Assembly (NCBI GenBank): GCA_025354385.1
Contig: JANXMZ010000055.1
Coordinates: 8,350 to 72,349, forward strand
DNA: 64,000 bases
Origin: Bacteroidota bacterium
Lineage (GTDB): Bacteria > Bacteroidota > Bacteroidia > NS11-12g > UBA955
Direction of reading: 5' to 3'
Shown here: positions 3,001-38,835 of the stretch, one piece after another
How the letters are laid out: every line of letters starts with the position of its first letter
Position numbering within the stretch: the stretch's first letter is position 1
Notes under the pieces: generated by a model
Told to the model about the DNA's origin: nothing
The model's input: the letters and a program-made list of their open reading frames with translations, nothing else
Database searches by the model: none
Translations under genes and position numbers: made by a program

Positions 3001-3616
3001 AGCTTAATTGTTCTTTGGCATATTCGCTAAATAAATCAGGTTTAGGCAATACAGGGGTAATCTTTTGGCTGTAGGCTGAATAAAACTTGCTTAAATCTTG
3101 AATTAATAATCCTATCGACCATCCATCACAAATAATATGATGTGCTGTAACGGTGAAAAAATATTCTAGACTGCTTAATTTATATAACGAGAATTTAAAG
3201 AGTGGTCCATTTAATAAATCAAAAACATAAAGGACATCATTTAATTTTGATTGCTTAATCGCATTATCAAGCTCTGTTTGATTGTAATGTGAAATATCTT
3301 CAAAGTGATAATTAAATTTAATCTCCTTAAAAACAATCATTTTACTACCATCCTTGGTAAAAGCAGAACGAAGGGATTCATGCCTATTGACAAGTGACTT
3401 CAATGCTAGTTCGAAGGCTTCTAAATTTAACACACCCTCGAATTTAATCGAAAGTGATTCATTAAATGCCCTATTGGCATCATCTCCTCCTAATTTACAT
3501 GAAGTCCATATTTCTAATTGGGGTTCAATTGTATAAAATGAATTTTGAATTTCGGGCCCTTCGAATGGATTAAACTCTATGGCTTCAGAACTGTTAGAAA
3601 TTTTTTCTTTATTCAT
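1..3616 (-). CDS. Non-ribosomal peptide synthetase module, 5' part only (C domain / truncated C-lobe-like insert / A domain); gene continues beyond window start
   Basis: Absent from the ORF track because it has no stop inside the window. My translation of the minus strand from ATG 3616..3614 gives MNKEKISNSSEAIEFNPFEGPEI... No minus-strand ORF fragment is listed in 1..3616, so the frame stays open to the edge. Motifs: TAHHIICDGWS (HHxxxDG, nt ~3105-3135); A cores LAYVIYTSGSTGLPKGV, FDATTFE, NGYGPTENT, YKSGDIG, GRNDNQIKLRGYRIEL, LPNYMIP and NGKID (last ~35 nt). Same layout as the 3635..8341 product. Confidence 0.9.
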   Translation of the reverse strand, partial: MNKEKISNSSEAIEFNPFEGPEIQNSFYTIEPQLEIWTSCKLGGDDANRAFNESLSIKFEGVLNLEAFELALKSLVNRHESLRSAFTKDGSKMIVFKEIKFNYHFEDISHYNQTELDNAIKQSKLNDVLYVFDLLNGPLFKFSLYKLSSLEYFFTVTAHHIICDGWSIGLLIQDLSKFYSAYSQKITPVLPKPDLFSEYAKEQLSFSNSNEYSENENFWLAQFKENIPVLNIPTDFPRPSPRTYKSSRLDFVLDDQLVAELKNIGIKEGCSFVNTLLASFELFLHSYSGQQDIIIGLPTAGQLVSGYYGLVGHCVSLLPIRSYPNTELSFPEYLKARKSSILDAYEHQRLTFSSLLNKLNIPRQSSRIPLVPVVFNIDMEIEGDTDFHQLNFDIFSNPREYENFELYLNVWGSKSKIQLEWSYNSQLFKKETVERMMQDFENLLRYIVSNPNQALQSFIHINKHPGIDRKNPIVDIEQSKKYWIKIFEGELPILEFPLLKKRSLDNAFLAKSYKNPINKELKEIFKQLLEHLQLSEKEGYPCLAIFLLYKYSGKEDFITGFQSVDTKSEVAIRNFIQPNDSFIKLLQSTRDNIRDAIKYQDYSLKKLSADLSIERPGNSNPFYDVKIVYQSKDNEQTKSNLELDLLIKFEEKDNGISLEIEYNGYLTDDAIIKRMAAHIESLLKNVLLEPDLPLNALEYMSDAERHELLHTFNNTNIILPEKVTIIDLFEQQVIKSPQEKAIVFENEVLTYTLLNEKANQLGNYLRKEYGIVANDLIGIQLERSEWMMIAILGLLKSGGAYVPIDPQYPEERIKYLKQDCNCKVVIDETELNKFKNIINQYSKDNIEKINTENDLAYVIYTSGSTGLPKGVMVEHKNVIRLVVNPNFIDFKPSLVLLATGALSFDATTFEYWSMLLNGGLLVICPQSTLLNIKLLSQEIKKHNVKIMWFTSGWLNQLIEADISLFSNLDYLLAGGDKLSPVHINKLRKFYPQLKIINGYGPTENTTFSLTYSIESELQNIPIGKPINNSTAYIVDKFCKLVPIGIEGEILLGGRGVTRGYLNQPTLTKEKFIPNPFKEGDILYKSGDIGKWNSDGNIEFIGRNDNQIKLRGYRIELSEIENNILKYKNIDLVIVKTWQNMNGEQSIVAYFKSSQAIDKDELKIFLAKQLPNYMIPIFFKQVAQFSLTPNGKIDMHQLPNPLEIDE
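1520..2200 (-). other. Truncated condensation-domain C-terminal-lobe-like insert between C and A (module in partial gene); approximate bounds
   Basis: Own translation: KKYWIKIFEGELPILEFP...CLAIFLLYKYSGKEDFITG...LEIEYNGYLTDDAIIKRMAAHIESLL...PLNALEYMSDAERHELLHTFNNT. This resembles the post-HHxxxDG half of a C domain, but it is shorter and has no HHxxxDG. Confidence 0.55.
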
Positions 3617-3634: not shown

Positions 3635-6600
3635 CTATTGAATTTCATTTAATACTTTTTGAAGTATTTGAGCGAATTCAATATTATTGGGCGGCATAAT
3701 CATCTCATCGTGATCGCCATTAACAATGTGTCTAACAATTCCCTTGGCCGCATAAGGTTTCCACCCTAAATGGATAGGATCTTCCTGATAGTATACTTTA
3801 TCAATAGATACAAAAAGATTGATAAGACCATCATAAGGCTCCAATTTGTATTTTTTTATAGCAATTGAATTCAATTCTATTGCCTTATCTATGTTTATGA
3901 AGGTTTCACTCAACTCTGATTTAATATGAATTCCAAATTTTGATTTCAAAGAGATGAATCGCAATTTCCAAAGCAATCCATAATATTCAAAAGTTTTTAG
4001 CGGACTTCTATAAATGGATTTTAAACTAAACCAAAGTATGGTTATAAATTGAGAAAATTGTCTGTTTAGTTTTTCGCTTAATGTATGAGATCTTTTGGCT
4101 TCATCAATGTTAAAATCAAAAATTGAAAGGGTCTTGACGTCCTTGCCCATATTTTTCAATTGTTTTGCCATTTCAAATGCGATAAGCCCTCCAGATGAGT
4201 GACCTGCTAATGCATACGGACCATCGGGATTTTGCAATAGCATCTCCGAAATGTAATAATTTGCCATCTTTTCTATGGAATCCAAAGGTTCATCAATACC
4301 ATCAATTCCTAAAGCCTGCAAGCCATACACAGGTTGATCTTCGTCTAAATATTTGCTTATGTGGTGAAAAACAATAACACCTAAACCACCTCCATGAACA
4401 ATATACAATGGCACTTTATTACCAGATGTTTTTATGGGAACCAAACATTTCCATTTTCGGGTCTTATCTTCTTTTTTGAGCAAGTTGGCCAACTTTTCTA
4501 TTGAAGAGTATTCAAATAAGGATGACATTGGCAATCTAATGCCAGTTTCATTTTCAATTCTAATAACTACCTTTATTGCAATTAGAGAATGTCCACCTAA
4601 TTCAAAAAAGTTTGCGGACTTATCAATATTTTCTATGGGTAGCAAGTCACTCCAAATTTTAGCAACCAACATCTCCTCTTTTGTTGACGATAAATTAAGA
4701 TGATCTGATTGAATAGGTTGAGTTTTTAATTCAATTTTACTTCTATCTATTTTACCACTCGGTAATAAAGGAATTAAATCTAATTGTTCATATTGCGAAG
4801 GCACCATATAACTTGGCAATTTAGAAGACAAAAATGCTCGAAGAAGATTAGTATCTATCATTTCATCTCCCACAAGATAAGCAACAAGTGATTGCTCATT
4901 TTCTGCTTCCCCTTTGGATGTTACCAAAACATTTAATATACCTTTAAATTGCAGTATCGCTTTTTCTATTTCACCGGCTTCTACCCTATAACCTCTTATT
5001 TTTAATTGAAAATCTTTTCTTCCTATAAAAACAATTCTACCATCTGCCAGCCAATAACCCAAATCACCGGTTTTATAAACCCTCTCATTTTTACGAAAAG
5101 GATTCTTTACGAATTTTTCTTTCGTTAATTCCTCGTTGTACAAATAGCCCCTTGCAACACCTTTACCTCCAATGTATAATTCCCCAGGAATTCCTATTGG
5201 TTGAATTTGGTAAAACTCGTCTAAAATATATGTTTGTGTATTCGAAATTGGTTTTCCAATTGGAATCACCTCCTCATCTTTCTCGACCTTGTTAGCTATA
5301 GTGCCGACTGTTGTTTCTGTTGGTCCATAATGATTTACAATTTCAATTTTATTAGTTCGTTCTTTAATTTTAGAAATGTCATTTCCAATTATTTTATCAC
5401 CACCAACAATTAATAACCTCAATCTTGAAGCACTGCAAAAAATATTAAAACTTTCTTCATCAGAAAGTATTAAATTAAGATGTGAAGGCGTTATTTTTAT
5501 AAAAGTTACGTTGTTATTCGAAATATAGTACGCTAATTCTTTTGGTGATTTTACTAATTCGTTAGGGATTACATAAAGCGCACTGCCAGATAATATTGAA
5601 CCAAATAAACTGGTATTAACACCATCAAAAGTAAAACTCGACAACAAAAGAGTGCCTTCATTATTTGCAATTTGAAACTCTGAAATAAACCAAGAATTAT
5701 AATTAATAATATTTCTATTTTCAACCATAACACCTTTTGGCTGTCCTGTGGAGCCAGAGGTGTATATTACATACGCAAGATCATTGGGAGTATTAATTTT
5801 TAGTAAATTATTCTTTGAATAATTATCGGCCAAAACTTCAAATTTTAAAAGTTCCTTTTCATCAATCACCACTTTACATTTGCTATTCTCTTTTAAATAG
5901 GCAATGCGCTCTAGGGGGTACTCCGGATCAATGGGAACATAAGCACCACCACTTTTCAAAACTGCTAAAATGGAAATTACTTGCCATTCACTTCGCTCAA
6001 GTTGAATCCCAATCAAATCATCAGGTTGAATTTCATATGTTTCCCGAAGATAGGCTCCAAGTTGGTTTGAGTGTTCATTTAACCCTGTATAATCAAGCTT
6101 TATATCTTTATAAACAACGGCTAGATTTTTTGGTGTTTTTAAAACTTGCGACTCAAATAATTCTACAATAGTGGTGTCTTCTGCAAAACCTACAAGATTA
6201 TTATTAAACGATTCAAGTATGTGATTTCGTTCTTCAACATTTATATATTCTAAGTAATTTAATGGTTGGTCTGGTGAATTCAACAATGCTTCCATTAATC
6301 CTTGAAAATGATACCCCATTTTTTCAATAACGGACTTATCAAATAATGTTTGGTTGTATTCTAGCTCCAAAACTGTTGAATTTTTTGAACCCAAGAATCT
6401 AAAAATTAAATCCAATCCGGAATTTACTGACTTAATTTTATGGTCAGTTCCTTGAACTTCTATTTTAATTGAATACAACTGCGGGCCATATTCGATTTGG
6501 CGTCTATTTAATTCAGTTTCAATATCGGCAACGGTAAAATCACCGTGCTTTAAACCCTCTCTTAAATTATTGGCAGATGATTGAAACAAGCTTAGAAAAG

Positions 6601-8341
6601 AATCATTGGGTTGAATAAAATTCCTTAATGCAATTAAAGATTCAGAACTGAATAATTTAATACCAGTAATAAAATCTTTCTCGCCTGAATATTTATATAG
6701 TAATAAGTTACATAAACAAACGTAACCTTCTTCCAAGCTTATAGAATAGTGGTCTAACTTTTCTTTAAAAGATAAAAGCAATGATTCACTTATTTTAAAT
6801 TGAACCAAAGAACTTTCAAATTTATTTTCTAAAGAAGTAGCTCTTCTAATTGGCAATTCTAAAACTGGAATTTTATCAGAGTACTTGTACAGCCAATATT
6901 TTTTAGATATTTCATAATGGGCTTCAGGATTATAGGCATTTCCTATAAATTCATTAAAACTATTTAATAATTTTTCTAGCTTCTGATTAGGATCGGAGAC
7001 AATTCTCTTTAACAATTGATTGAAAGTTTGAATCATTTCTTCTACTTTCTCTGGCTTAAATAATTGGCTATTATAAGACCATTCCAATTGAATATTCTTT
7101 TCACTGCCCCATACATTCAATGAAAATTCGAAATTTCGAAATTCTTTTTTATTGCTAATGGTTTTAAAAGTGAGTTGATCAAAATTAACACCATTGTCCA
7201 TTTCCATATCTACGTTAAAAACCACTGGTACCAAAGGAACTCTTGCAGGATCTCTTGAAATTTTTAAATTTTTTAGTAAACTTCCAAAAGTAAATTGCTG
7301 ATGATCATAGGCATCCAGAATTGCTAATTTTCTTTCTTTAAGATATTCAATAAAACTTAATGCCTCATTAATGTTACTTTTTAAGGGCAATAAATTTACG
7401 CAATGTCCAACCAAATTTAATCTACCTGAAGCAGATTGGTCAGCTGCAGGTAATCCTATCACAATATTCTTTTGTCCTGATATTTTTGCAATAAAAATTT
7501 CAAAAACTGCGAGCAATGTATTCACTAGGCTACAACCTTCTTTAATCCCTATTTTTTTTATTGATAGGGCAATTGTTTCCTCTAGTTTTGAATCAATGCG
7601 CTTACTTTTAAAGGTTCTATTTGTAGGTCTTGGGTAATCTATTGGCAGATTAAGGTTAGGGTTGATCTGCTTGTGTTGATTTACCCAATAGTCAATATTA
7701 TTTCTATAAATAGTCCCGTTCACAAATTCTTTCTGCTCATGCGCATATACGCTGAATAAATCAGGGGCTTCCAAATCAGGAAGTAAGTGCTTTTTAAAGG
7801 CAGAATACAATTTACTTAAATCTCGTAAAATAATACCCAATGACCAGCCATCACAAATTATGTGGTGCGCATTGAAAATAAAATAATGTTCGTCCTCATT
7901 TAATTTATAAAGTCTAAATTTAAATAGAGGCCCATTAACAAGGTCGAATACATGAAGTGCGTCTTCTAGCGTATATTGTTCGAGCAGACTTGCTACATCG
8001 CTGTTCGATTTTTGAGATAGGTCCTCAAACTTATAATCAAAAGCTACTTCCTTAAAAACAAGCATTTGTGTGCCATCTGAGTTAAATGCAGAGTGTAATG
8101 CTTCATGTCTGTATACAACAGCTAATAGAGCTTCCTCAAAAGACTTAACATCAAATTTTCCATTAAAATGGAGAGAGATTGATTCATTAAAACCTCTATT
8201 TGCATCATCTCCACCTAAAGCACATGAAAGCCATATTTCCAATTGCGATTCTGTGGCAGGGATAATAGAAACTATTTCGGCACCCACAAACGGATTAAAT
8301 TCGGTAGGATTAACAGATTGGGGATAATCCTTTGAACTCAT
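3635..8341 (-). CDS. Non-ribosomal peptide synthetase, terminating module: C / truncated C-lobe-like insert / A / PCP / thioesterase
   Basis: 1568-aa ORF. NAHHIICDGWS (aa 158-167). A cores: LAYVIYTSGSTGQPKGV, FDGVNTS, NHYGPTETT, YKTGDLG, GRKDFQLKIRGYRVE, LPSYMVP, SGKIDR. PCP FFELGGHSL (Ser1252). TE GHSSGG (Ser1382) and GDHDEM near the C-terminus. The ATG overlaps the upstream stop as ATGA (8338-8341). Confidence 0.95.
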   Translation of the reverse strand: MSSKDYPQSVNPTEFNPFVGAEIVSIIPATESQLEIWLSCALGGDDANRGFNESISLHFNGKFDVKSFEEALLAVVYRHEALHSAFNSDGTQMLVFKEVAFDYKFEDLSQKSNSDVASLLEQYTLEDALHVFDLVNGPLFKFRLYKLNEDEHYFIFNAHHIICDGWSLGIILRDLSKLYSAFKKHLLPDLEAPDLFSVYAHEQKEFVNGTIYRNNIDYWVNQHKQINPNLNLPIDYPRPTNRTFKSKRIDSKLEETIALSIKKIGIKEGCSLVNTLLAVFEIFIAKISGQKNIVIGLPAADQSASGRLNLVGHCVNLLPLKSNINEALSFIEYLKERKLAILDAYDHQQFTFGSLLKNLKISRDPARVPLVPVVFNVDMEMDNGVNFDQLTFKTISNKKEFRNFEFSLNVWGSEKNIQLEWSYNSQLFKPEKVEEMIQTFNQLLKRIVSDPNQKLEKLLNSFNEFIGNAYNPEAHYEISKKYWLYKYSDKIPVLELPIRRATSLENKFESSLVQFKISESLLLSFKEKLDHYSISLEEGYVCLCNLLLYKYSGEKDFITGIKLFSSESLIALRNFIQPNDSFLSLFQSSANNLREGLKHGDFTVADIETELNRRQIEYGPQLYSIKIEVQGTDHKIKSVNSGLDLIFRFLGSKNSTVLELEYNQTLFDKSVIEKMGYHFQGLMEALLNSPDQPLNYLEYINVEERNHILESFNNNLVGFAEDTTIVELFESQVLKTPKNLAVVYKDIKLDYTGLNEHSNQLGAYLRETYEIQPDDLIGIQLERSEWQVISILAVLKSGGAYVPIDPEYPLERIAYLKENSKCKVVIDEKELLKFEVLADNYSKNNLLKINTPNDLAYVIYTSGSTGQPKGVMVENRNIINYNSWFISEFQIANNEGTLLLSSFTFDGVNTSLFGSILSGSALYVIPNELVKSPKELAYYISNNNVTFIKITPSHLNLILSDEESFNIFCSASRLRLLIVGGDKIIGNDISKIKERTNKIEIVNHYGPTETTVGTIANKVEKDEEVIPIGKPISNTQTYILDEFYQIQPIGIPGELYIGGKGVARGYLYNEELTKEKFVKNPFRKNERVYKTGDLGYWLADGRIVFIGRKDFQLKIRGYRVEAGEIEKAILQFKGILNVLVTSKGEAENEQSLVAYLVGDEMIDTNLLRAFLSSKLPSYMVPSQYEQLDLIPLLPSGKIDRSKIELKTQPIQSDHLNLSSTKEEMLVAKIWSDLLPIENIDKSANFFELGGHSLIAIKVVIRIENETGIRLPMSSLFEYSSIEKLANLLKKEDKTRKWKCLVPIKTSGNKVPLYIVHGGGLGVIVFHHISKYLDEDQPVYGLQALGIDGIDEPLDSIEKMANYYISEMLLQNPDGPYALAGHSSGGLIAFEMAKQLKNMGKDVKTLSIFDFNIDEAKRSHTLSEKLNRQFSQFITILWFSLKSIYRSPLKTFEYYGLLWKLRFISLKSKFGIHIKSELSETFINIDKAIELNSIAIKKYKLEPYDGLINLFVSIDKVYYQEDPIHLGWKPYAAKGIVRHIVNGDHDEMIMPPNNIEFAQILQKVLNEIQ
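3647..4429 (-). other. Thioesterase (alpha/beta hydrolase) domain of the 3635..8341 NRPS
   Basis: aa ~1305-1565: LYIVHGGGL, GHSSGG nucleophile elbow, C-terminal GDHDEM histidine motif. Confidence 0.8.
6242..6910 (-). other. Truncated condensation-domain C-terminal-lobe-like insert between C and A (aa ~478-700)
   Basis: KKYWLYKYSDKIPVLELP...CLCNLLLYKYSGEKDFITG...VLELEYNQTLFDKSVIEKMGYHFQGLMEALLNSPDQPLNYLEYINVEERNHILESFNN. This parallels the second half of the preceding full C domain (DYWVNQH..NLPIDYPRP...LLAVFEIFIAKISGQKNIVIG...IQLEWSYNSQLFKPEKVEEMIQTFNQLL). It lacks the N-lobe and HHxxxDG. Confidence 0.6.
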
Positions 8342-11300
8342 TTAAACTCGGTAATATTTATTTGTAAAAACTTTCCAGGCTGGTTGGGGTCATTAATAAA
8401 CCAAGCTGGGTCTCCATTTCGGTCTCTCCCTAATTTTGCACCTGGAATTGGCGGTATCATGGAATTAGTATTTTTGTTTTCTGAAATTTTTGGCGCATAG
8501 AAACCTCCTTCAATGAGTGCCTGAATTGATTTCCTGAAGGCGTCTATAATTTGATTAATTTCATTATCGGTATGAGCCTCTGTAATGAAACATGGGAATC
8601 CATCCCAAATATGTATTCCTTCAAGTCTTAAAGCAGAAAATAATAGTTCACTATAAGGTATTTCTTCTTTGTATTTTATTTTCCATAATGATCCATATTG
8701 AGCTGCATAAATTGGTAAACCATGTTTATTAAATTCTTCATTGAGGTTATTGGCCAAATAATTGGTTTTTTGGGTAATGCCTTCTTGCAATGCAGTTCCT
8801 TTAGATTTCATATAGCTTAATGAAGCCTTTGCAGCAGCCAAAGCTAAGGGATGCCTCACAAAAGTTCCAGCAAAATAGGTAACCCCAATTTCTGGATAAG
8901 ATTCATCACCATATTGCCAAAATCCTCCATCTAACGCATCCATAAATTCTTTCTTTCCTGCGATAGCACCAATTGGAATACCAGCACCCACCACCTTACC
9001 ATATGAAGCTATATCCGCCTTTATACCAAACAAGGCTTGCGCCCCACCGGGATGCATTCTAAATCCGGTAATTACTTCATCAAATATTAATGCCGTTCCT
9101 GAATTCAGCGTAATTTTCCGTACTTCTTTTAAGAAATCAATAGGAGTAAACTCTGGACGCCTACTTTGAACAGGTTCTACCAACACAGCAGCTAATTCAT
9201 GAGCTCTTTCTTTGATAATATTTAAACTTTCTTCTGTTCCATAGTCCAGAATAAGCATATTCTGAACAGCTTCTTGCATAATACCTGGAGCTGCCGGAAA
9301 TGATTTAAGTTTTTTCGTGCCTCTTACAATTACTTCATCAACAATGCCATGGTATGAACCATTAAAGGCAACTATCAGTGATCTTCCAGTTACCGTTCTG
9401 GCTATTCTCATGGTTCCTAATACAGCCTCAGAGCCGGTGCTACAAAGTGCGGACCTATCATGGCCAGTTAAATCGCAAATAAGCGAACAAACTTCACCTG
9501 CCAATTCATGCTGTGGTCCAACCTCATAGCCATTTTCTATTTGATTAAGCAACGCCTTTTTAATAATTTCTGGCTGATGACCTAACATGGAAGAGCCAAA
9601 ACCGTTTAAAGCATCAATATACTCGTTGCCATCAATATCCCACAAACGGGAACCTTTTGATTTATTGACAACCAAAGGATATACAATTTCTTTCGTTAAA
9701 GGTTTAAAGCCCGACACAACCCTTGGATCAGACATCGTACTTCTATTCTTTTGAGCGTATTGCTTACTAAGTTTCGTTTTATCATTGTACTTAACAGTAA
9801 ATTCTTTTAGAAAGGCAGATTGTTTTTCGGTTAGTTCTTCTTTTTGTTTTTCAATTCTTGCGGTTGCTCCAAAAGGTTTGCTAATTTCAGCGGCTTCTTC
9901 AGGACTTAAGTCCGACAAAACTTTAGCACTATTTACATTTACTGGATGACTTTGAGAATTTAAAATATTTCCTGTTGTGGAATTATTTTGAAGCATTGCC
10001 AATTGATTCGATAGCATTTGAATCTGTTGTGCTATTAAATTTATAGGCGATTCATTAACTGGTCCATTTGTTTGAACAGGGGCAATGACATTGGTATTAT
10101 AATATGAATCTTGTGGCAAATTGGCATCTAAATAATCTATTAATAAGGCAGGTGTTGCATAACCTTCATTTAGTTGTCTAAATGTTATTGGCAACCCAAA
10201 CTCTTTTTTAAATGTTATTGCTACTTGTGTTAATAAAAGTGAATCAAGTCCAATTTCTAAAAAACTCATGGTTGGTGAGATGTTCTCCATTTCTAATCCA
10301 GAAGCATCCTCTAGTAATTCTTTAATCCTCTTAAACAGTGTCTGTTTTCTCATTGGTTGAATGTTTTGCTCTGAAGAATTTTCAGCATTATTTAATTCTT
10401 CAAATATAAAATTATTTTTATTGCTAATTGTATCAATATTGTCATTTAAGTTGATGTTGGGTTCAACCCAACATTTTTTTCTATCAAATGCATAGGTAGG
10501 GATATCCATTTTAAGTCGCTTTTGACCATTATAAAATGAATCCCAGTCTGGCTCTATGCCACAAAGCCACATATTGCCAAGAGCCTTTAATATAGAGTGC
10601 ATCTCAGATTTTAAATCACTCCTTTCCAGGCTGGAATAAACATTCACTTTTTTAGCGCTAATTTGTTGTTTGGCTAACGTTGAAGTAACATTCCCTGGGC
10701 CAACTTCTAAAAATAGAGCATTGTCAAATTCAGATATAGTATCAAGAGCCTCAGAAAATCGAACTGTCTTTCTCAAATGCTCCGCCCAGTAATTAACATC
10801 TGTTGCTTGTTCATCTTTTAACCAGGTTCCTGTTACTGTAGAAATAATTGGCTTTTGTGGCTTATTAAGTTTTATTGTTCCAACCATTTTTTTGAATTCA
10901 GGAACAACAGGATCCATCATTGCAGAATGAAATGCATGACTCGTTAACAATACTCGATTCGGAATTTCTAAACCATCTAATTTTTTAGAAAACATTGCAA
11001 TACTCTCGTCATTGCCAGCCACTACACAAAGTTTCTTATTGTTAATTGCTGCCAAAGAAAGGTCTGATGGCAAAATAGCATTTAATTCTACTGAATCAAG
11101 TCTAACAGATAGCATACTTCCCCCAGGCAATTGACTAACGAGTTTTCCTCGTGTCGCTACCAATTTAAGCGCATCATCTAATGAGATTACACCAGCAAAA
11201 TGAGCTGCAACAAATTCACCTATACTATGTCCAACAAAAATGGTTGGTTGAATACCCCAACTCAACCAAAGTTTAGTAAGGGCATATTCAGTAATAAAAA

Positions 11301-14300
11301 TGGCTGGCTGAGTATAATAGGTATTCTTTAATTGATCCTCTGTTTTTTGATTTTGAGATTCTGGAAATATGACCTTTCTGATATCTGTTTTTAGAAAAGG
11401 TTCGAGAATAATGGCACATTCATCAATGGCATTTCTATAAATTTCTTGATCTTTATACAATTCATATCCCATATAAAGATATTGTGCACCTTGACCTGGA
11501 TATGAGAAAATAACTTCACTTGGTAATTCTGTTAATATTTTTGAGTCTGCTCCAGAAATATTTTCCAAAATCAATTGGTTTAAAAAATCTTCAGATGAAC
11601 TAGCCAACAAGAACCTTCTATGATTAAAACTTTCTCTAAATTTATTCAATGAATAAGCCATATCCGCAATATTAGTATGGTTGTTTTTACGAATATGATT
11701 GGCCAATAGGTGTGCATATTTTTCCCTGCTTTCCAAGGATTTGGCCGACCATTTAAATAATTGAAGGCCCTTTACTTCATCAGAAAATTTAACTTTATTC
11801 TCAAATTCTTCCAAAACAACATGAACATTTGTACCTCCTACTCCAAATGAACTTACGCCTGCTATTCTTGTAAGATCAGATACCCAATTACGGTGCTTTT
11901 CATTAACATAGAATGGGCTGTTTTCGAAATCAATATGGTGATTTGCTTTGGTAAAGCCAATAGATGCGGGTATTTCTTTCTTGTACAGAGCTAAAGCTGT
12001 TTTGATTAATCCTGTAACACCTGCAGCGGCTGTTAAATGACCAATATTGCCCTTTACTGAGCCTATGGCACAATATTGATTTTTAGCCTGATTACCAAAA
12101 GCCATCCTTAAACCTTCTAATTCTATGGGGTCTCCCAAAGGAGTACCTGTACCATGTGCCTCAATGTATTGAATATCCGAAGCGGCAACTTTTGCATCTT
12201 CAAGGGCCATCACAATTGCACCTGCTTGACCCAAAGCGCTGGGAGCTGTAAAACTACCTTTACCACTTCCGTCATTATTAATACCAACACCTTTTATTAC
12301 TGCAAAAACTGTATCACCATCCTTTATAGCAGATTCCAAGTTTTTCAATAATACCACACCTGCACCATCACTAAAAACAGTTCCCGTGGCAGTATCATCA
12401 AAAGGTCTGCAATGACCATCTGAGCTAAACATAGCACCTTCCTGATAAATATGTCCACTATTAATTGGAGCTGTAATGCTAACTCCGCCTGCAATTGCAA
12501 TGTCGCAATGTCCATTTCTAATACTTTCTACAGCTTGTGTAACAGCTAATAAAGATGTAGAACATCCAGAATAAACACTCACTGCTGGCCCTTTTAAATT
12601 AAGTTGGTAGGCCGTTCTAGATGCAACATAATCCTTCTCATTTACAGACATTACCTGAAAACTACCAACTTGACTTATTAATTTTTGATTTGAATGAACA
12701 TTATTAATGTAATATGTATTGTTTCCAGAACCCGCATAGACACCTATGATTCCATCATATTTTTGTGGAACATAACCCGTCTTTTCAAGTACTTCCCATG
12801 AAATTTCCATGAATACTCTTTGCTGAGGGTCCATTAAACTGGCTAATTTTGCGTTAATGCCAAAGAAATTTGCATCAAATTTATCTGCGTCATCAATTAT
12901 GCCTCTTGCAGCTACATATTCACTATCATTCTTAATTTGAGATGGTATTGAATTATCTATTTCTTCTTTTGAAAAGAATTTAATGGTTTCTTTACCTTGT
13001 TTTAAAATTTCCCACAAAGAATCAATATCTGGGGCTCCAGGAAATTTTCCTGCCATGCCAATAATGGCGATATCTTCACTTTGATAGTTACTCTTATAAG
13101 TTGATTTTATATTAACTGATTGAGATTTTGCTGGTTCTAAAAGTTGGGATATTCCACCTATTGTAGGAAATTGATAGAGCTTTGTAATTGGCAAATAATA
13201 GTTGTATCGTATTTTTAGATTTGATACAGTTTTTTGAGCAAGTAATGAATTGCCTCCTAACTCAAAGAAATTATCATCTAACCCTATTTTATGAATTTGC
13301 AATATTTCTGTCCAAATATCTGCTATATTTTCTTCAATTCTTGAATTGGGTTTTTTGTATAAGGAATTTAATTCTGGTCGTTCAAAATCCGGCTTTGGTA
13401 ATAGTTTTCGATCTATTTTACCACTAGAGGTTTTAGGAAATTCCTCCATCCAAACAAATGCTGATGGGATCATATATTCTGGGAGTAATTTCATGAGAGA
13501 ATCTCTAACAAAACCAGTATCTTTAACTAACGAATCACTAATTAAGTATGCAACTAGCATTTTTTGACCTGGTATATCTTCTCTGGCAACTACAGCTGAT
13601 TGTTTTATACCTGTTTGTTGAGTTAATACAACTTCTATTTCTCCTAATTCAATTCTATTACCTCTAATTTTGACTTGATCATCTTTTCTTCCTAAAAATT
13701 CAATTTCGCCTTCATTATTAAAGGTTGCCAAATCACCCGTTTTATAAAGCCTTAGTATTCCTTTGTCTGGATGTTGCCAATCAATAAATTTTTCCGCAGT
13801 CAAGTTGGGTTGAAATAAATATCCTTCTGCAAGACAATCACCAGCAATACACAACTCACCTATCTCGCCAATTTCTCTGATTTTTAATTCTTCATCTAAT
13901 ATATAGATTGAAACATTTTCAATGGATTTTCCAATATTGGGCAATGCTGGCCAAGAAGTAGGTTCACCTATTAATCTCTTTTCAGTAACTACGTGGCATT
14001 CAGTAGGGCCATATTGATTATACAGCACTGCGTTATCTAAGTTTTTGAAGAACTCTACTATTTGTGGAGTAATCTTTAATTGTTCACCTGCCGTCATAAT
14101 TTCTTTAAGACTGATAGGATACTTTGAAAAAGAAACAGCCATTTCAGCCAAATACTGCAAGGCAACAAATGGAAGAAATATTCTGGCTATATTTTGATTT
14201 TCAATAATTTCAAGAACCTTGAGTGGATCTAATCTTTGTCTATCGTCAATTAACACTAAAGTTCCACCAGTAGTTAAAGTTGCAAAAATTTCTTGAAAGG

Positions 14301-14892
14301 AAACATCAAAAGTGAGTGGTGCAAATTGCAAGGTTTTTGTGCCAATACGTGAAATGGAATTTATTTTTTGCCATTCTAATAAATTTACAAGCGCCTTGTG
14401 CCGCATACAGACACCCTTTGGCTTGCCAGTAGAACCTGACGTATATAATACATATGCTAAAGACGCTTGCTTTTCAATGTTAATTTTTACCGATTCATTG
14501 TCTTTAAAAGACTTTAATCCAAGTTTATTAAATAGTTCATTATCTTCCGCTGTATGACATATTCCAAATTTAATTTGAGAATCTGAAACTATTTGCTGTA
14601 ATCTTTCTACTGGATAATTGGGGTCTAAAGGCAAATATGCCTTGTTAGATTTAAGAATCGCCAAAACCCCAATTATCATATCAATGGATCGTGTAGTACA
14701 TATACCAACAAAATCTGAATTTGAAGCTTGAATTTTTATAAGGTTAGAAAGTACTTCAGCCTTCGAATTTAATTCAGCATAGCTAATATTAATACCGTTG
14801 TAGGTGACTGCAATTTCATCCTTACAGTCATTTGCAATTTTTTCAAACAATTGATGAACTAACAACAAATTATCATTTTCATTTATAATCAT
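8338..14892 (-). CDS. Hybrid NRPS-PKS: A / PCP / KS / AT / ACP / class-III (HemL-like) aminotransferase
   Basis: 2184-aa ORF. A: LAYVLYTSGSTGKPKGV, FDVSFQE, NQYGPTECH, YKTGDLA, GRKDDQVKIRGNRIELGEIE, LPEYMIPS, SSGKIDRK. PCP: FFELGGNSL. KS: DPQQR, GCSTSL, EAHGTGT, GNIGH. AT: GHSIGE, HAFHS. ACP: LGLDSLL. PLP domain: GSEAVLG, FDEVITGFR, SYGKVVGAGIPIGA. I checked that the Cys777 codon falls at nt 12562-12564. Confidence 0.95.
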   Translation of the reverse strand: MIINENDNLLLVHQLFEKIANDCKDEIAVTYNGINISYAELNSKAEVLSNLIKIQASNSDFVGICTTRSIDMIIGVLAILKSNKAYLPLDPNYPVERLQQIVSDSQIKFGICHTAEDNELFNKLGLKSFKDNESVKINIEKQASLAYVLYTSGSTGKPKGVCMRHKALVNLLEWQKINSISRIGTKTLQFAPLTFDVSFQEIFATLTTGGTLVLIDDRQRLDPLKVLEIIENQNIARIFLPFVALQYLAEMAVSFSKYPISLKEIMTAGEQLKITPQIVEFFKNLDNAVLYNQYGPTECHVVTEKRLIGEPTSWPALPNIGKSIENVSIYILDEELKIREIGEIGELCIAGDCLAEGYLFQPNLTAEKFIDWQHPDKGILRLYKTGDLATFNNEGEIEFLGRKDDQVKIRGNRIELGEIEVVLTQQTGIKQSAVVAREDIPGQKMLVAYLISDSLVKDTGFVRDSLMKLLPEYMIPSAFVWMEEFPKTSSGKIDRKLLPKPDFERPELNSLYKKPNSRIEENIADIWTEILQIHKIGLDDNFFELGGNSLLAQKTVSNLKIRYNYYLPITKLYQFPTIGGISQLLEPAKSQSVNIKSTYKSNYQSEDIAIIGMAGKFPGAPDIDSLWEILKQGKETIKFFSKEEIDNSIPSQIKNDSEYVAARGIIDDADKFDANFFGINAKLASLMDPQQRVFMEISWEVLEKTGYVPQKYDGIIGVYAGSGNNTYYINNVHSNQKLISQVGSFQVMSVNEKDYVASRTAYQLNLKGPAVSVYSGCSTSLLAVTQAVESIRNGHCDIAIAGGVSITAPINSGHIYQEGAMFSSDGHCRPFDDTATGTVFSDGAGVVLLKNLESAIKDGDTVFAVIKGVGINNDGSGKGSFTAPSALGQAGAIVMALEDAKVAASDIQYIEAHGTGTPLGDPIELEGLRMAFGNQAKNQYCAIGSVKGNIGHLTAAAGVTGLIKTALALYKKEIPASIGFTKANHHIDFENSPFYVNEKHRNWVSDLTRIAGVSSFGVGGTNVHVVLEEFENKVKFSDEVKGLQLFKWSAKSLESREKYAHLLANHIRKNNHTNIADMAYSLNKFRESFNHRRFLLASSSEDFLNQLILENISGADSKILTELPSEVIFSYPGQGAQYLYMGYELYKDQEIYRNAIDECAIILEPFLKTDIRKVIFPESQNQKTEDQLKNTYYTQPAIFITEYALTKLWLSWGIQPTIFVGHSIGEFVAAHFAGVISLDDALKLVATRGKLVSQLPGGSMLSVRLDSVELNAILPSDLSLAAINNKKLCVVAGNDESIAMFSKKLDGLEIPNRVLLTSHAFHSAMMDPVVPEFKKMVGTIKLNKPQKPIISTVTGTWLKDEQATDVNYWAEHLRKTVRFSEALDTISEFDNALFLEVGPGNVTSTLAKQQISAKKVNVYSSLERSDLKSEMHSILKALGNMWLCGIEPDWDSFYNGQKRLKMDIPTYAFDRKKCWVEPNINLNDNIDTISNKNNFIFEELNNAENSSEQNIQPMRKQTLFKRIKELLEDASGLEMENISPTMSFLEIGLDSLLLTQVAITFKKEFGLPITFRQLNEGYATPALLIDYLDANLPQDSYYNTNVIAPVQTNGPVNESPINLIAQQIQMLSNQLAMLQNNSTTGNILNSQSHPVNVNSAKVLSDLSPEEAAEISKPFGATARIEKQKEELTEKQSAFLKEFTVKYNDKTKLSKQYAQKNRSTMSDPRVVSGFKPLTKEIVYPLVVNKSKGSRLWDIDGNEYIDALNGFGSSMLGHQPEIIKKALLNQIENGYEVGPQHELAGEVCSLICDLTGHDRSALCSTGSEAVLGTMRIARTVTGRSLIVAFNGSYHGIVDEVIVRGTKKLKSFPAAPGIMQEAVQNMLILDYGTEESLNIIKERAHELAAVLVEPVQSRRPEFTPIDFLKEVRKITLNSGTALIFDEVITGFRMHPGGAQALFGIKADIASYGKVVGAGIPIGAIAGKKEFMDALDGGFWQYGDESYPEIGVTYFAGTFVRHPLALAAAKASLSYMKSKGTALQEGITQKTNYLANNLNEEFNKHGLPIYAAQYGSLWKIKYKEEIPYSELLFSALRLEGIHIWDGFPCFITEAHTDNEINQIIDAFRKSIQALIEGGFYAPKISENKNTNSMIPPIPGAKLGRDRNGDPAWFINDPNQPGKFLQINITEFK
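8503..9720 (-). other. PLP-dependent class-III aminotransferase domain (aa ~1725-2130)
   Basis: WDIDGNEYIDALNGFGSSMLGH, CSTGSEAVLGTMRIAR, IFDEVITGFRMHPGGAQ, and ASYGKVVGAGIPIGAIAG (candidate PLP lysine 1966). The pattern matches glutamate-1-semialdehyde aminomutase-like enzymes. Confidence 0.8.
10123..10350 (-). other. ACP domain (aa ~1515-1590)
   Basis: FLEIGLDSLLLTQ with Ser1551. Confidence 0.8.
10573..11520 (-). other. Acyltransferase domain (aa ~1125-1440), malonyl-type signature
   Basis: FSYPGQGAQY, GHSIGE (Ser1223), HAFH at aa 1319-1322. Confidence 0.85.
11803..13077 (-). other. Ketosynthase domain (aa ~606-1030)
   Basis: IAIIGMAGKFPGA start, DPQQR, active-site Cys777 (GCSTSL), His913 (EAHGTGT), His952 (GNIGH). 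Confidence 0.9.
13378..14865 (-). other. Adenylation domain (aa ~10-505) of hybrid synthase
   Basis: A3-A10 core motifs as listed for the CDS. Confidence 0.85.
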
Positions 14893-14955
14893 TATTTAAA
14901 TGTTTGATTATTTGAATATTAATAGATTACAGAAATATGAAGAAGTATTAATTAC

Positions 14956-14963
14956 AAAATTAT
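14956..14963 (-). promoter_or_regulatory. Candidate Bacteroidota -7 box (TAATTTTG, TAnnTTTG consensus) upstream of NRPS/PKS operon
   Basis: Plus-strand caaaatta, which reads TAATTTTG on the minus strand. It lies ~64 nt upstream of the ATG at 14892. I saw no convincing -33 TTTG, and the motif is expected by chance roughly once per 1.5 kb in this composition. Confidence 0.25.
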
Positions 14964-15189
14964 TGCAGTAGCAATACTGCCTTAAAAAAGCAAAACAGTG
15001 TTTAATCATTTGTGTTTTAGTTATTTAAAATATAAAAGTTCGACTCGTTTTAGTGTCTAACTGTATATATTTCATTGCAATAATAACTAATTTATTAAAA
15101 AAATAAAAACTTTGAAAATAATTTTGAACTTTTTTTAAGTTATATAAGTCTTTTTTTTAGGATCTTACCCCATTAATGAGATTGATTTA

Positions 15190-15723
15190 TTAATTATTAA
15201 ATTGACATTTTAAACCCAGAAATACGACAGGTCCATTATATCTCTGATAAGTATTATTCTCATAATAGGCCCCTGTAAGGCCATAATCATAACCCAATTT
15301 GAGATTTGCAATGATTTTTTTTCCTAAATTAATTTGACCACCGATGGTTTGAATACTCGATAAATAAGTGTGATTCTTAATATTACTATGGTAAAGTGTT
15401 GGATTCAGAGAAATAGCAGGTGAATAAAAAACACCCCATTTATTTTCAAAATAACCAACTTCTGGAAATGCAATAAAACTGAGGTAATCTGCTTGTATGA
15501 TGCTTCCTTTTGATCTTTGGCTATAAAACATAGATGTTTCAATATAAAAATACTTATTCAATTTACTACCTATCGTAAAACCATATATAGGTTGAAAACT
15601 ATTGGGGTTAATTCCAATCTTATTAACACCTGTTACATATCCAATTTCTTGACTTTCTGCTAATTGAGCATTGTTTAAAAATGTTATAATTACTAGGTAA
15701 ATACGCAAATGAGATTTGATCAT
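15190..15723 (-). CDS. Small outer-membrane beta-barrel (OmpW/porin-family-like) protein
   Basis: 177 aa. N-terminal signal peptide (LVIITFLNNAQLAES). Alternating aromatic/hydrophilic beta-strand pattern. C-terminal ...FLGLKCQFNN, with an aromatic residue near the end typical of OMP barrels. Confidence 0.55.
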   Translation of the reverse strand: MIKSHLRIYLVIITFLNNAQLAESQEIGYVTGVNKIGINPNSFQPIYGFTIGSKLNKYFYIETSMFYSQRSKGSIIQADYLSFIAFPEVGYFENKWGVFYSPAISLNPTLYHSNIKNHTYLSSIQTIGGQINLGKKIIANLKLGYDYGLTGAYYENNTYQRYNGPVVFLGLKCQFNN

Positions 15724-16305: not shown

Positions 16306-17883
16306 ATGAAAGATTCACAAAGTTTATATCTCAATAATTATATAAGGTATATAAAATTATTTTTGATAGTCGGTGACTTATTGCTCTTGAATATGTCATA
16401 TATTCTTGCATTTGTTATTCTCCATGGCAATATTGAAACACTAAACAATAAAGATTCTCAGATTTTTTTATTCGTTTCAAATATTTTTTGGCTATTTCTA
16501 CTCTATCACTTTAAAGAAACAATTTGCAGGCGTAAGCACATTGAAGAATGTCTATCCAAAACATTTAAATTAATTACTTACTTGTTTCTGTCACTAACCA
16601 CTTTCGCTGTATTATTTAAGTTAAGTAATATTTCAAGAATGGAGTTCATTGTTTTTTTTATTAATTTTACTTCAATCACATTGGTATACAGAGTTGCCTC
16701 TATAATGTTTCTAAAAAGAATTAGAAAATTAGGCAACAATTTTAGAAATGTTATTATTGTTGGTGGAGGTGAAAATGCATTTGAGATTAATAGTGCGCTA
16801 TCAAATGATTTATCGCAAGGATACAAGATTTTAGGTTTTTTTGATGATAACCCTTCTCAGGCAAAATTAAAGTCAAACTATTTAGGTTCATTGACAAATG
16901 TTGCCGACTTTGCTCTTCATAACCATGTTCATGAGATATATGTAACACTGAGAGATTTCGATAATTCTGCAATCAGACAACTCATTAATTTCTGTGAGAG
17001 AAATCTAATACGTATAAAGTTTATACCCGATTATAAGTTGTTTCAAGAGACCAATAAAGTTTCTATAGATTTTTACGGAAAAGTACCTGTTATTTCTTTA
17101 AGAATAGAGCCTTTGGAAATACCTATTAATAGGATTAAAAAGCGTTTATTCGATGTATTCTTTTCATCTGCTGTAATCATTTTTATTTTCCCTTGGCTGT
17201 TTCCAATATTAATATTCTTGGTAAAATTGAGTTCTAGAGGTCCAATTTTCTTTAGTCAAAAACGATCAGGTGAAGGAAATAAAAGTTTTTGGTGCTACAA
17301 ATTTAGAACTATGCGAGTGAATAACCAGTCTGATAGTCTGCAAGCAACTGAAAATGATTCTAGAATAACACGTGTTGGCAAATTCATGAGAAAAACAAGC
17401 CTTGATGAACTGCCTCAGTTTTTTAACGTATTAATTGGTAATATGTCTATTGTTGGTCCTAGACCTCACATGTTAAAACACACAAAAGAATATTCTGAGA
17501 TTATTGACAAATATTTAGTTAGACATTTTGCTAAGCCGGGCATTACAGGATGGGCACAAACTCATGGATACAGAGGCGAAACGAACAATATTGAAGCAAT
17601 GGAAAAACGCATAGAGCACGATATTTGGTTCATTGAAAACTGGTCTTTCCTATTGGATATTAAAATTATAATTCTAACCGTTCGTGATATGTTCAAAGGA
17701 TTATCCAGCCATTTGGAATCGCGTAAAGAAGTTGTTGAAAATGAATCTTCAATAAGGAGAAAAATACCTATGAGATTAGTGCAATCTTACACCTTATCGA
17801 GTAGTTTCAATCATAAAAAAGCATTCAGATCATTGAGAAATAACATCAATAATGCAAGGACTGAAAGAAATTTGGCTGAATGA
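16306..17883 (+). CDS. Polyprenyl-phosphate sugar phosphotransferase (WbaP/exopolysaccharide initiating transferase family)
   Basis: 525 aa. N-terminal TM helices, central Rossmann-like segment (VIIVGGGENA), KRLFDVFFSSAVIIFIFPW...SRGPIFFSQKRSGEGNKSFWCYKFRTM, DELPQFFNVLIGNMSIVGPRP, FIENWSFLLDIKII. Carries a ~65-aa basic C-terminal extension. Confidence 0.9.
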   Translation: MKDSQSLYLNNYIRYIKLFLIVGDLLLLNMSYILAFVILHGNIETLNNKDSQIFLFVSNIFWLFLLYHFKETICRRKHIEECLSKTFKLITYLFLSLTTFAVLFKLSNISRMEFIVFFINFTSITLVYRVASIMFLKRIRKLGNNFRNVIIVGGGENAFEINSALSNDLSQGYKILGFFDDNPSQAKLKSNYLGSLTNVADFALHNHVHEIYVTLRDFDNSAIRQLINFCERNLIRIKFIPDYKLFQETNKVSIDFYGKVPVISLRIEPLEIPINRIKKRLFDVFFSSAVIIFIFPWLFPILIFLVKLSSRGPIFFSQKRSGEGNKSFWCYKFRTMRVNNQSDSLQATENDSRITRVGKFMRKTSLDELPQFFNVLIGNMSIVGPRPHMLKHTKEYSEIIDKYLVRHFAKPGITGWAQTHGYRGETNNIEAMEKRIEHDIWFIENWSFLLDIKIIILTVRDMFKGLSSHLESRKEVVENESSIRRKIPMRLVQSYTLSSSFNHKKAFRSLRNNINNARTERNLAE

Positions 17884-37345: not shown

Positions 37346-38107
37346 TTACTTGATTGTTTTAGACGTTGTGTAAATAAGGAGTATGAAAGAAACAGTTGTG
37401 AGAAAGAGGGATAGGTTTTGTGTAAATCTCGACAATGGAGCTGCTTTGGTATGGGTTGACTCTACGTATAAAACATCTTGGTTTTGAAGATAAAATATAT
37501 CAGTACTAAATATTTCGTTATTATTAAGACTGAATCGTTTTGTTATTCTCTTTCCATCCTTTTCCCTAATCAATAAGATATTTTCTCTGTTTCCATAAAT
37601 TGTCAAATCGCCAGCCATACCAAGTGCCTCTGTTATGGTGATGTGTTCGTTCGGCACTGTAACAACACCGGGCTTATTTACTTCACCAAGAATAGTGATT
37701 TTAAAATTGGTGATTCTCACATTGACAATTGGGCTAAGCATTAATTGATTTTGAATTAATTTTTTAGAAATGGTGTCTGCCAATTGGATTTTATTTAATC
37801 CTCCCGCTTTAATATTGCCCAATAAGGGAAGTTTGATTCTGCCGGAATCATCCACCATAAAACCATCTGCAGTTGACACATTATTCAAAATTTTACTTGT
37901 TTCAACATCCAATGAAAATACTGATATCTGCAAAATGTCGCTTGGTTTAATAATACTCTCTTTAGGGAATAAAGTAGAATTAGAAACGCTGTTGGTTTCT
38001 AAGGATTTAAAATATATCAGCTTCTCATTTTTTCTTGTAAGGCAAGAACTTAAGCCAAAAATTAGCGCCATAAGAAGAATAAGAATAGAATTTTTTGAAA
38101 TTTTCAT
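37346..38107 (-). CDS. Polysaccharide export outer-membrane lipoprotein (Wza-like)
   Basis: Lipoprotein signal LSSC. Poly_export-like IKPSDILQISVF. SLBB-like GEVNKPGVVTVP...ITITEALGMAGD. Confidence 0.8.
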   Translation of the reverse strand: MKISKNSILILLMALIFGLSSCLTRKNEKLIYFKSLETNSVSNSTLFPKESIIKPSDILQISVFSLDVETSKILNNVSTADGFMVDDSGRIKLPLLGNIKAGGLNKIQLADTISKKLIQNQLMLSPIVNVRITNFKITILGEVNKPGVVTVPNEHITITEALGMAGDLTIYGNRENILLIREKDGKRITKRFSLNNNEIFSTDIFYLQNQDVLYVESTHTKAAPLSRFTQNLSLFLTTVSFILLIYTTSKTIK

Positions 38108-38322: not shown

Positions 38323-38835
38323 TTATTGTTTTTTGCTTATTTTTACTACAAAAGATAACGGTAAATTAACTTCCAAAGCACTTCCAAGTGCTTCAACAGA
38401 TACTATTATACGCCTTTTACCTTTGATTACCAGAGATTTAGCAACCAAGCCAGTAAATGGACCTTGGGTTACCAAAACATCTTCACCTTCTTCAAAATCA
38501 ACATTTTCTATTGGCGAAACCTCCGATGAATCATTCATCAATATTTTGAGATTCTCTATTTCTTGGTCTTTAATTACTGCAGGTTGTCCTATGTATTTTA
38601 AAATCCCAAGTGCTCCTTGCACTTGAAGTGTCTCATAAACCCTTTCTCTCTCAATTTTAATAAACACAAAAGTGGAGATGAGAGGTGTTGAAATTTTCTT
38701 TTTCCGATCGCTCCAAATCCTTATGCTATTTACTAATGGTAAATAAGTATCGTAGCCTAAAAGTGTTAATTTATCAAAGACCCTTTTCTCTGCGTTTGGC
38801 CTGGTGTATATAGCGTACCAATTATTTTGAGCCAT
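38323..38835 (-). CDS. UpxY-family (NusG-like) transcription antiterminator
   Basis: WYAIYTRPNAEKRV...IWSDRKKKISTPLISTFVFIKI (NGN) and GEDVLVTQGPFTGLVAKS (KOW). Sits at the head of the polysaccharide locus. Confidence 0.85.
   Translation of the reverse strand: MAQNNWYAIYTRPNAEKRVFDKLTLLGYDTYLPLVNSIRIWSDRKKKISTPLISTFVFIKIERERVYETLQVQGALGILKYIGQPAVIKDQEIENLKILMNDSSEVSPIENVDFEEGEDVLVTQGPFTGLVAKSLVIKGKRRIIVSVEALGSALEVNLPLSFVVKISKKQ

Follow-up and report, generated by a model that had tools for sequence, protein, structure and literature searches.

In mycosubtilin biosynthesis, the synthetase subunit MycA aminates a β-ketone while it is still bound to its carrier, after which the β-aminoacyl chain is handed to a condensation (C) domain. 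To our knowledge, such in-line β-amination by an aminotransferase (AMT) embedded in a polyketide synthase (PKS) has been applied only to lipid or polyketide chains, as in the iturins and microcystin. Here, we analysed a 64,000-nucleotide stretch of a Bacteroidota contig (JANXMZ010000055.1, positions 8,350 to 72,349, assembly GCA_025354385.1), hereafter called the window, which carries a hybrid nonribosomal peptide synthetase (NRPS)-PKS gene designated HYB. As judged from its sequence, HYB most likely encodes a MycA-type β-aminating module that is primed by a proline or proline-like unit, and it belongs to a large uncharacterised family of the Bacteroidota. This family would thus apply in-line β-amination to an amino-acid starter, and the predicted building blocks are β,γ-diamino acids. 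We know of no characterised pathway that uses a pyrrolidine-containing vicinal diamine as a building block. With a probability of roughly 70%, we consider that HYB initiates a short, branched line of NRPS-PKS type, proline-primed and β-aminating, and docks to separate partner proteins with the domain order C, adenylation (A), peptidyl carrier protein (PCP), and thioesterase (TE).

An initial annotation, made from the sequence alone, had described HYB as a single polypeptide with six domains in series. The open reading frame (ORF) listing and the Pfam search returned all six in that order, A-PCP-ketosynthase (KS)-acyltransferase (AT)-acyl carrier protein (ACP)-AMT; a putative docking tail follows them (Table 1). 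The Pfam families proposed for checking the architecture (AMP-binding, PP-binding, ketoacyl-synt N and C, Acyl_transf_1, and Aminotran_3) were all matched, with E-values between 1e-23 and 1e-66, including 3e-66 and 5e-40 for the N- and C-terminal KS families. PP-binding was found in two stretches, the strongest at aa 1522-1588, while Aminotran_3 covered aa 1738-2095, where a domain at approximately aa 1725-2130 had been predicted. A motif search of the translation located every cited residue and motif at its cited position, with GGNSL at 546, Cys777 in GCSTS, EAHGTGT at 911 (His913), and GHLTAAAG at 951 (His952) in the front half, and GHSIGE at 1221, HAFH at 1319, GLDSL at 1548 (Ser1551), GSEA at 1820, and FDEVITGFR at 1937 in the rear half, where Lys1966 lies within YGKVVG. 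The KS and AT motifs were intact, and HAFH is the accepted malonyl signature of PKS AT domains. With an ORF of 6.5 kb and domain scores of this size, a chance origin of HYB is not a concern.

The annotation had also noted the lack of reductive domains. No ketoreductase (KR), dehydratase (DH), or enoylreductase (ER) was matched by Pfam in HYB at E <= 0.001, and the gaps of 76 aa between AT and ACP and of 150 aa between ACP and the pyridoxal phosphate (PLP) domain are too small for any of them, so that no reductive domain lies concealed. The best PDB match of the KS-AT didomain was 8xju/8xjy ("Polyketide synthase", E 1e-209), well above CurL. In entry 8xjz, this polyketide synthase is co-deposited with a "Peptide synthetase" chain, which was the best single-domain match of the HYB A domain. 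Since the KS-AT and A matches share entry 8xjz, the nearest solved relatives of these domains appear to form an NRPS-to-PKS hand-over pair. These entries may be ClbI and ClbH, which is a guess only, as their identity could not be established.

The β-keto thioester would be the substrate of the PLP domain. HYB aa 1701-2132 aligned end to end, over 432 residues, with the AMT structure of mycosubtilin MycA (6KFM/6KFU; E 4e-122, 411 bits), compared with E 4e-50 for the best glutamate-1-semialdehyde aminomutase. Both YGK, which contains the PLP lysine (Lys1966), and DE(V/I)ITGFR are conserved between HYB and the MycA AMT. These matches agree with the MycA-type in-line β-amination proposed at the outset, and they identify the domain as a predicted PKS-embedded β-keto transaminase of the MycA kind rather than a stray HemL protein. 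The same domain bears on a looser parallel that had been drawn to prodiginine and tambjamine synthesis. In such a route, prolyl-PCP would first become pyrrolyl-PCP by oxidation and only then be extended, and an amino acid would be condensed by the PLP domain. The resemblance stood, but only superficially, in that a proline-like A domain, KS, carrier, and PLP domain recall PigI, PigJ, and PigH. The shared chemistry did not stand, since neither the cluster nor the set of conserved neighbours contained a prolyl-carrier oxidase of the acyl-CoA-dehydrogenase type, and since the PLP domain is of class III (Aminotran_3) and MycA-like, not an α-oxoamine synthase. Domain typing therefore effectively refutes this route, which we regard as scarcely credible.

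The starter A domain scored 362.6 bits with TIGR01733, the NCBIfam model for amino-acid adenylation domains, against a curated cut-off of 317.4. It carries the equivalents of Asp235 and Lys517, and its PDB neighbours were all NRPS A domains. All of this is consistent with the earlier suggestion that the primer is an amino acid and not a fatty acyl group. For the substrate itself, only the 148-aa pocket region was searched against the PDB. Two structures stood out, 8p5o (Gramicidin S synthase 2, GrsB; E 8.5e-25) and 9bfd_B (Tyrocidine synthase 2, TycB residues 650-795; E 2.8e-23), with the next match reaching only 1e-12; we take both to be first modules that activate proline (GrsB1 and TycB1). 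HYB aligned to them almost without gaps, and with none in the stretches that line the pocket. This alignment gave the code DVQIMAQVVK for HYB, compared with DVQLIAHVVK in both GrsB1 and TycB1. Seven of the ten positions are thus shared, two more differ conservatively, and His at position 322 is replaced by Gln. The pattern DVQ[LI][MI]AQVVK was carried by about 110 of the 120 closest homologs. Since code and pocket both match GrsB1 and TycB1 and the code is kept in homologs, the HYB starter is most likely proline or a close analogue. Two other assignments were tried and rejected. Glycine was suggested by the top A-domain PDB match, LgrA (E 4e-169), whose score sums two A-domain matches of about 280 bits each. 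The code DVQFMAQVVK takes Phe239 as position 278, which the GrsB1/TycB1 alignment assigns to Ile238.

The same logic could operate if the starter were an analogue of proline (pipecolate, or a hydroxylated or methylated proline), perhaps made or modified by JmjC/cupin_8 oxygenases. Most family members have Gln instead of the canonical His at position 322, and, like the present locus, at least nine others combine the cassette with cupin_8 genes. However, most loci lack cupin_8 genes although the code of the first A domain is constant, and the three code positions that depart from GrsB1 and TycB1 include two conservative changes. Gln and His also seem interchangeable at position 322 among related A domains: the second modules of Parapedobacter loci read DVQFIAHVVK, DVQFIAQVVK, and DVQFMAQVVK (with the first-pass column for position 278), and five representative starter domains carry the canonical DVQLIAHVVK. 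We consider an analogue unlikely, without dismissing it, and proline itself is retained as the starter in the scheme given below.

Beyond the initial annotation, HYB is, on the evidence of its gene order and domain content, the first protein of a multi-gene line with a proline-like starter and three TE-terminated partners. The ATG of gene 2 overlaps the HYB stop codon (ATGA). The translation of gene 2 contains the motifs HHIICDGWS, GGHSL, and GHSSGG, and its A-domain code is DGTKIGHVGK. Gene 3 starts 18 bases past gene 2 and extends beyond the left edge of the window; it shares 49% identity with gene 2, as a paralog, and has the code DAFWLGGTFK. The source contig was retrieved by exact protein look-up and showed that, beyond the window and on the same strand, gene 3 is followed by gene 4, a C-less A-PCP-TE protein of 887 aa with the code DILQ.SMIHK, then by an Sfp-type phosphopantetheinyl transferase (PPTase) and two JmjC/cupin_8 proteins. 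Going by published codes, gene 2 would be Asp-like, gene 3 Val, and gene 4 Gly-like. Three TE-terminated proteins in one short operon are unusual. A search for the cupin protein in PADLOC returned nothing.

The partner C domains of genes 2 and 3 retain HHxxxDG, and their PDB matches were Txo1/2 and TycC, which do not indicate a subtype. Both proteins have about 260 extra residues between C and A, the gene 2 copy lying at window 6167-6949 (-). These residues matched only positions 185-456 of the Condensation profile and represent a truncated C lobe without HHxxxDG. The Maribacter hybrids (locus L067) have a similar half-C domain at their N-terminus.

The connection between HYB and its partners is suggested by two conserved elements. 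Where the hybrid is split from its partner, its tail follows the consensus PPxPGA(K/R)LGRDxxGNPAWFIxDPxQPGKYLQV, which was kept in all split homologs inspected and was absent where the hybrid is fused directly to a C domain. Just N-terminal of the C domain, the motif [VI][DE]F[DN]PFxGxEI was present in 55 of the 55 split partners examined; gene 2 begins with TEFNPFVGAEI (about 8280-8341) and gene 3 with IEFNPFEGPEI (about 3550-3616). We infer that the HYB tail and the partner FNPF motif form a putative docking pair, which resembles no COM or docking domain that we know of. Since genes 2 and 3 both carry the FNPF motif, one donor probably feeds two terminating modules, and the line would branch to two products. 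About a dozen of the best 120 among at least 8000 homologs are approximately 3440-3480 aa long, with C-A-PCP-TE fused after the AMT. Because these homologs read AMT-C-A-PCP-TE in one polypeptide, the separate C-A-PCP-TE protein can be regarded as the functional successor of HYB. The C-A-PCP unit that follows the AMT in MycA-type modules is accordingly found here as well, in trans in gene 2, directly at the HYB stop codon, and in cis in the fused homologs.

From these elements, the following mechanism is proposed. L-proline or a close analogue would be adenylated and loaded onto the PCP, and the KS would join the prolyl unit to malonyl-ACP to yield 3-oxo-3-(pyrrolidin-2-yl)propanoyl-S-ACP. The AMT would then aminate the β-ketone on the ACP, giving a 3-amino-3-(pyrrolidin-2-yl)propanoyl thioester. 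This would be a β,γ-diamino acid, a vicinal diamine whose γ nitrogen is the proline ring nitrogen. After docking of the conserved HYB tail with the N-terminal FNPF motif of a separate C-A-PCP-TE protein, the partner C domain would couple the diamino-acyl thioester to the amino acid of its own module, Asp or Val here and Gly in most relatives. The partner TE would finally free a dipeptide-sized product by hydrolysis or by lactamisation, for example to a seven-ring lactam via the β-amine. The predicted product is thus a proline-derived β,γ-diamino-acid dipeptide. Its calculated [M+H]+ would be 216.134 with Gly as the second residue (C9H17N3O3; 198.124 when cyclised) and, for the organism of the window, 274.140 with Asp and 258.181 with Val.

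A different fate of the chain can be envisaged, in which the proline nitrogen attacks the ACP thioester to form a bicyclic 1-aminopyrrolizidin-3-one, comparable to loline or pyrrolam, and the TE-bearing proteins acylate its amine. The starter nitrogen would be free for this reaction because no C domain precedes the HYB A domain, five-ring lactamisation of γ-amino thioesters is chemically easy, and such a role could accommodate the unusual surplus of TE domains and the C-less A-PCP-TE protein. On the other hand, the fused homologs have an intact C domain right after the AMT, which is the canonical MycA donor-to-acceptor geometry; the catalytic motif of the partner C domains is kept; and the putative docking pair is conserved. 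We therefore consider enzymatic use of the bicycle improbable and favour the hand-over of an open diamino-acyl chain from HYB to the partner C domains.

Several points nevertheless weigh against the proline-primed, docking line as proposed. Position 322 is Gln, where textbook proline codes have His. The docking pair is read from a conservation pattern, and the mechanism assigns no role to the three TE domains together, to the C-less A-PCP-TE protein, or to the truncated C lobes. The substrate, the amino donor, the stereochemistry, and the release mode are all deduced. Furthermore, a free γ-amino-β-keto (or β-amino) thioester may lactamise spontaneously to a pyrrolizidinone, in competition with its transfer to the C domain.

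A further point beyond the initial annotation is that this architecture is no rarity. It defines a phylum-wide Bacteroidota family and a wider metagenomic superfamily. A homolog search covering 5.8 billion proteins gave at least 8000 matches. The best 120 of them had the same architecture at 55-72% identity, and all those with an organism name came from Bacteroidota (Spirosoma, Hymenobacter, Mucilaginibacter, Dyadobacter, Puia, and others). When the distribution was scanned with the AMT domain, counting one genome per species, it was present in at least 564 species-level genomes. Among the matches listed, 78 of 80 genomes belonged to the Cytophagales, Sphingobacteriales, Chitinophagales, or Flavobacteriales. 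The other two were metagenome-assembled genomes (MAGs) labelled Janthinobacterium lividum (L052, L075), which carry a cassette of Bacteroidota type. Their gene order is that of the Sphingobacteriaceae loci L028 and L045, and they are probably mis-binned contigs and not evidence of horizontal transfer. Two MAG contigs (L035, L053) contain a fragmented hybrid gene that reads as numerous short ORFs, which points to pseudogenisation or frameshift errors.

Unbiased clustering of all ORFs in the retrieved loci revealed a conserved three-gene core, consisting of HYB (82 loci), the C-A-PCP-TE protein (69), and the PPTase (47). The partner A-domain code is mostly DILQ.G[MVL]IWK, which we take to be a glycine code; Asp, Asn, Ala, Val, Cys-like, and proline-like codes were also found. 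The starter is constant while the second residue varies even between close kin: in L007 the AMT is 86% identical to that of HYB and the partner code differs. A methyltransferase domain is inserted in the partner A domain of a Pedobacter locus (L012 11476-16710; Pfam), from which an N-methylated second residue (sarcosine) is predicted. Partners of about 1745 aa, similar in length to the L012 partner, were also seen in other Pedobacter, Larkinella, and Spirosoma loci.

To describe the wider superfamily, phmmer was run with the AMT domain against 1.84 billion representatives at 50% identity, which gave 2888 proteins at E <= 1e-30. Among the best 150 of these, A-T-KS-AT-T-AMT (T, carrier protein) was the commonest complete architecture (49 proteins), and others add C-A-T(-TE). 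The same 150 included 71 full starter A domains, all 71 with Asp235 and Lys517. Proline-like starters accounted for 32 of the 71, the canonical DVQLIAHVVK included, and the codes of the remainder were canonical for Val, Thr, or Ser, similar to those for Gln or Cys, or of other kinds. Since the starters span such a range of codes, amino-acid-primed β-aminating modules are predicted to form a broad class, with HYB in its proline clade.

The initial annotation recognised no characterised pathway with this domain string, and we found none either, in a search that covered NCBIfam and the full-text literature. There was no NCBIfam equivalog for HYB. Full-text queries with codes, domain strings, genera, AMT terms, PDB ids, and the exopolysaccharide link returned nothing on the family, although a recent characterisation is possible, and the genome-mining papers on Bacteroidetes and Pedobacter that were consulted made no mention of it. 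Across at least 564 species-level genomes, from Bacteroidota of soil, freshwater, and the sea, the family combines a constant proline-type starter with a variable second residue, and metagenomes are rich in relatives whose starters are Val, Thr, Ser, or other residues. As some carriers are cultured and genetically tractable, the family offers a large, coherent, and experimentally accessible target for genome mining.

The genes around the cassette point to a possible physiological context. In the window, a complete capsule or exopolysaccharide operon on the same strand immediately precedes the cassette (Table 1). Same-strand, tightly spaced genes for Wza-like, Wzc-like, Wzy, and Bac_transf proteins adjoin it in Spirosoma and Mucilaginibacter, and comparable same-strand export or synthesis genes occur in Fibrella. 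In Maribacter, a Poly_export (Wza-type) gene was confirmed by Pfam, while the Wzy_C match was weak and below the cut-off. Paired GT2 glycosyltransferase genes flank the cassette in Pedobacter, Mucilaginibacter, and Parapedobacter. By BLAST of flanks of about 5 kb against a small reference set, which gives lower bounds, at least 42 of 69 loci had a polysaccharide gene in these flanks, and at least 18 of 69 had export or polymerisation machinery. The cassette might therefore serve the adjoining polysaccharide, its cationic diamino-acid product being attached to, priming, or regulating the surface polymer instead of being a free metabolite. However, the association is absent from most Flavobacteriales loci and many others, the adjoining polysaccharide genes differ in type between lineages, no transferase was identified that could link a thioester product to a sugar, and the enrichment of 42 of 69 is a judgement and not a statistic, made without a genome-wide background rate. 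We treat the association, frequent but not universal, as a lead and not as a finding, and consider a dedicated polysaccharide role rather doubtful. If it were true, it would mean a thiotemplate enzyme system devoted to surface-glycan biology in place of a diffusible secondary metabolite. That the cassette is often located next to polysaccharide loci is a hint that its role is physiological and not antibiotic.

Other features of the window were noted. The small gene orf177, 5′ of HYB, had no match in Pfam, NCBIfam, or PADLOC, and a homolog occupies the equivalent position in the closest genome (L007). It is possibly a small outer-membrane β-barrel, and its membership in the system is uncertain. 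A hairpin, GCAGTATTGCTACTGC, followed by TAATTTTG, lies at window 14955-14980 (-), 63-70 nt 5′ of the HYB ATG. The second element fits TAnnTTTG, the Bacteroidetes -7 promoter consensus, and may be due to chance in such AT-rich DNA. A sigma-70 promoter scan of the window was at background (27 sites, 23 expected), and no tRNA or Rfam matches were found within the window. Elsewhere, a 1460-aa ORF at window 56537-60919 (+) had no Pfam family in the precomputed annotation. A 254-aa protein of the metallo-β-lactamase fold at window 44903-45667 (+) had a precomputed match to the Anti-Pycsar Apyc1 family (PF23023) and sits amid otherwise chromosomal, housekeeping-like DNA.

Table 1. Features of the HYB cassette and its neighbourhood (window coordinates unless stated otherwise; aa positions refer to HYB).
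Feature	Position	Strand	Description	Basis
HYB, hybrid NRPS-PKS gene	8338..14892	-	2184 aa, ATG start, uninterrupted	ORF listing
A domain	13417..14847	-	AMP-binding aa 16-359, AMP-binding_C aa 418-492	Pfam
PCP	13135..13329	-	approx. aa 522-586, GGNSL with Ser549	Pfam PP-binding, motif position
KS	11953..13077	-	ketoacyl-synt N+C aa 606-980, Cys777/His913/His952	Pfam, motifs
KS-AT linker families		-	reaching approx. aa 1107	Pfam
cis-AT	10555..11508	-	Acyl_transf_1 aa 1129-1446, GHSIGE and HAFH	Pfam, motifs
ACP	10129..10329	-	aa 1522-1588, GLDSL with Ser1551	Pfam, motif
AMT domain	8497..9792	-	MycA-type class III, aa 1701-2132, Lys1966	MycA alignment
HYB C-terminal tail	8341..8460	-	aa approx. 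2145-2184, PPIPGAKLGRDRNGDPAWFINDPNQPGKFLQI, putative docking element	conservation
Gene 2	3635..8341	-	1568 aa, C - truncated C lobe - A - PCP - TE	Pfam, translation
Gene 3	1..3616	-	5′ part only in window, 1567 aa complete, C - truncated C lobe - A - PCP - TE	translation, source contig
A-PCP-TE, PPTase, two JmjC/cupin_8	source contig (L002) 19590-24707		past left window end	
orf177	15190..15723	-	5′ of HYB, signal-peptide-like N-terminus, beta-rich	by eye
Capsule or exopolysaccharide locus	16306-38835	mostly -	directly upstream of cassette	
UpxY/NusG-like	38323..38835	-		
Wza (Poly_export)	37346..38107	-		
Wzc (Wzz/GNVR/AAA_31)	34935..37331	-		
GT1/GT2/GT4 glycosyltransferases, hexapeptide acetyltransferases, AsnB-like amidotransferase	down to 17955	-		
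Sugar-phosphate transferase (Bac_transf)	16306..17883	inverted	between capsule operon and orf177/cassette	

Among known systems, several share part of the logic predicted for HYB. In McyE and NdaF, which build the Adda unit of microcystin and nodularin, the AMT follows the ACP of a PKS module and precedes NRPS domains, but these proteins act on a long polyketide chain delivered by upstream modules and contain a C-methyltransferase. The starter side resembles SwnK (swainsonine, with pipecolate) and the dolaproine and detoxinine modules, in which an A domain loads proline or pipecolate and KS-AT-ACP adds one malonyl unit. There, a KR leads to a hydroxyl or methoxy group, whereas HYB has an AMT in its place; since HYB lacks a KR and carries an AMT, an amine is expected. 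RedL of the prodiginines, A-ACP-KS-AT-ACP-PLP, has the same domain order as HYB, yet its A domain loads a fatty acid and its PLP domain is a class-II α-oxoamine synthase that condenses an amino acid, in contrast to the class-III transaminase of HYB. The net chemistry predicted for HYB, from α-amino ketone to vicinal diamine, is that of BioA, a class-III aminotransferase which converts 7-keto-8-aminopelargonate into 7,8-diaminopelargonate. This is an analogy only, as BioA is a free-standing enzyme of primary metabolism acting on a free acid, while HYB would act on a carrier-bound thioester.

The closest system is that of MycA, ItuA, and BmyA, in which, as in HYB and its partners, KS-AT-ACP-AMT without reductive domains is followed by a C-A-PCP module. 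The differences lie at both ends. MycA starts with a fatty-acyl-AMP ligase and an ACP, whereas HYB starts with an amino-acid A domain that has a proline-like pocket. Unlike MycA, the HYB line is split after the AMT by the putative docking pair. In Bacillus, MycA places a lipid β-amino acid within a heptapeptide macrocycle, while the HYB line of Bacteroidota hosts would join two building blocks. HYB would thus work like MycA and yet fall outside the iturin-synthetase family, since it lacks the loading by a fatty-acyl-AMP ligase that defines that family.

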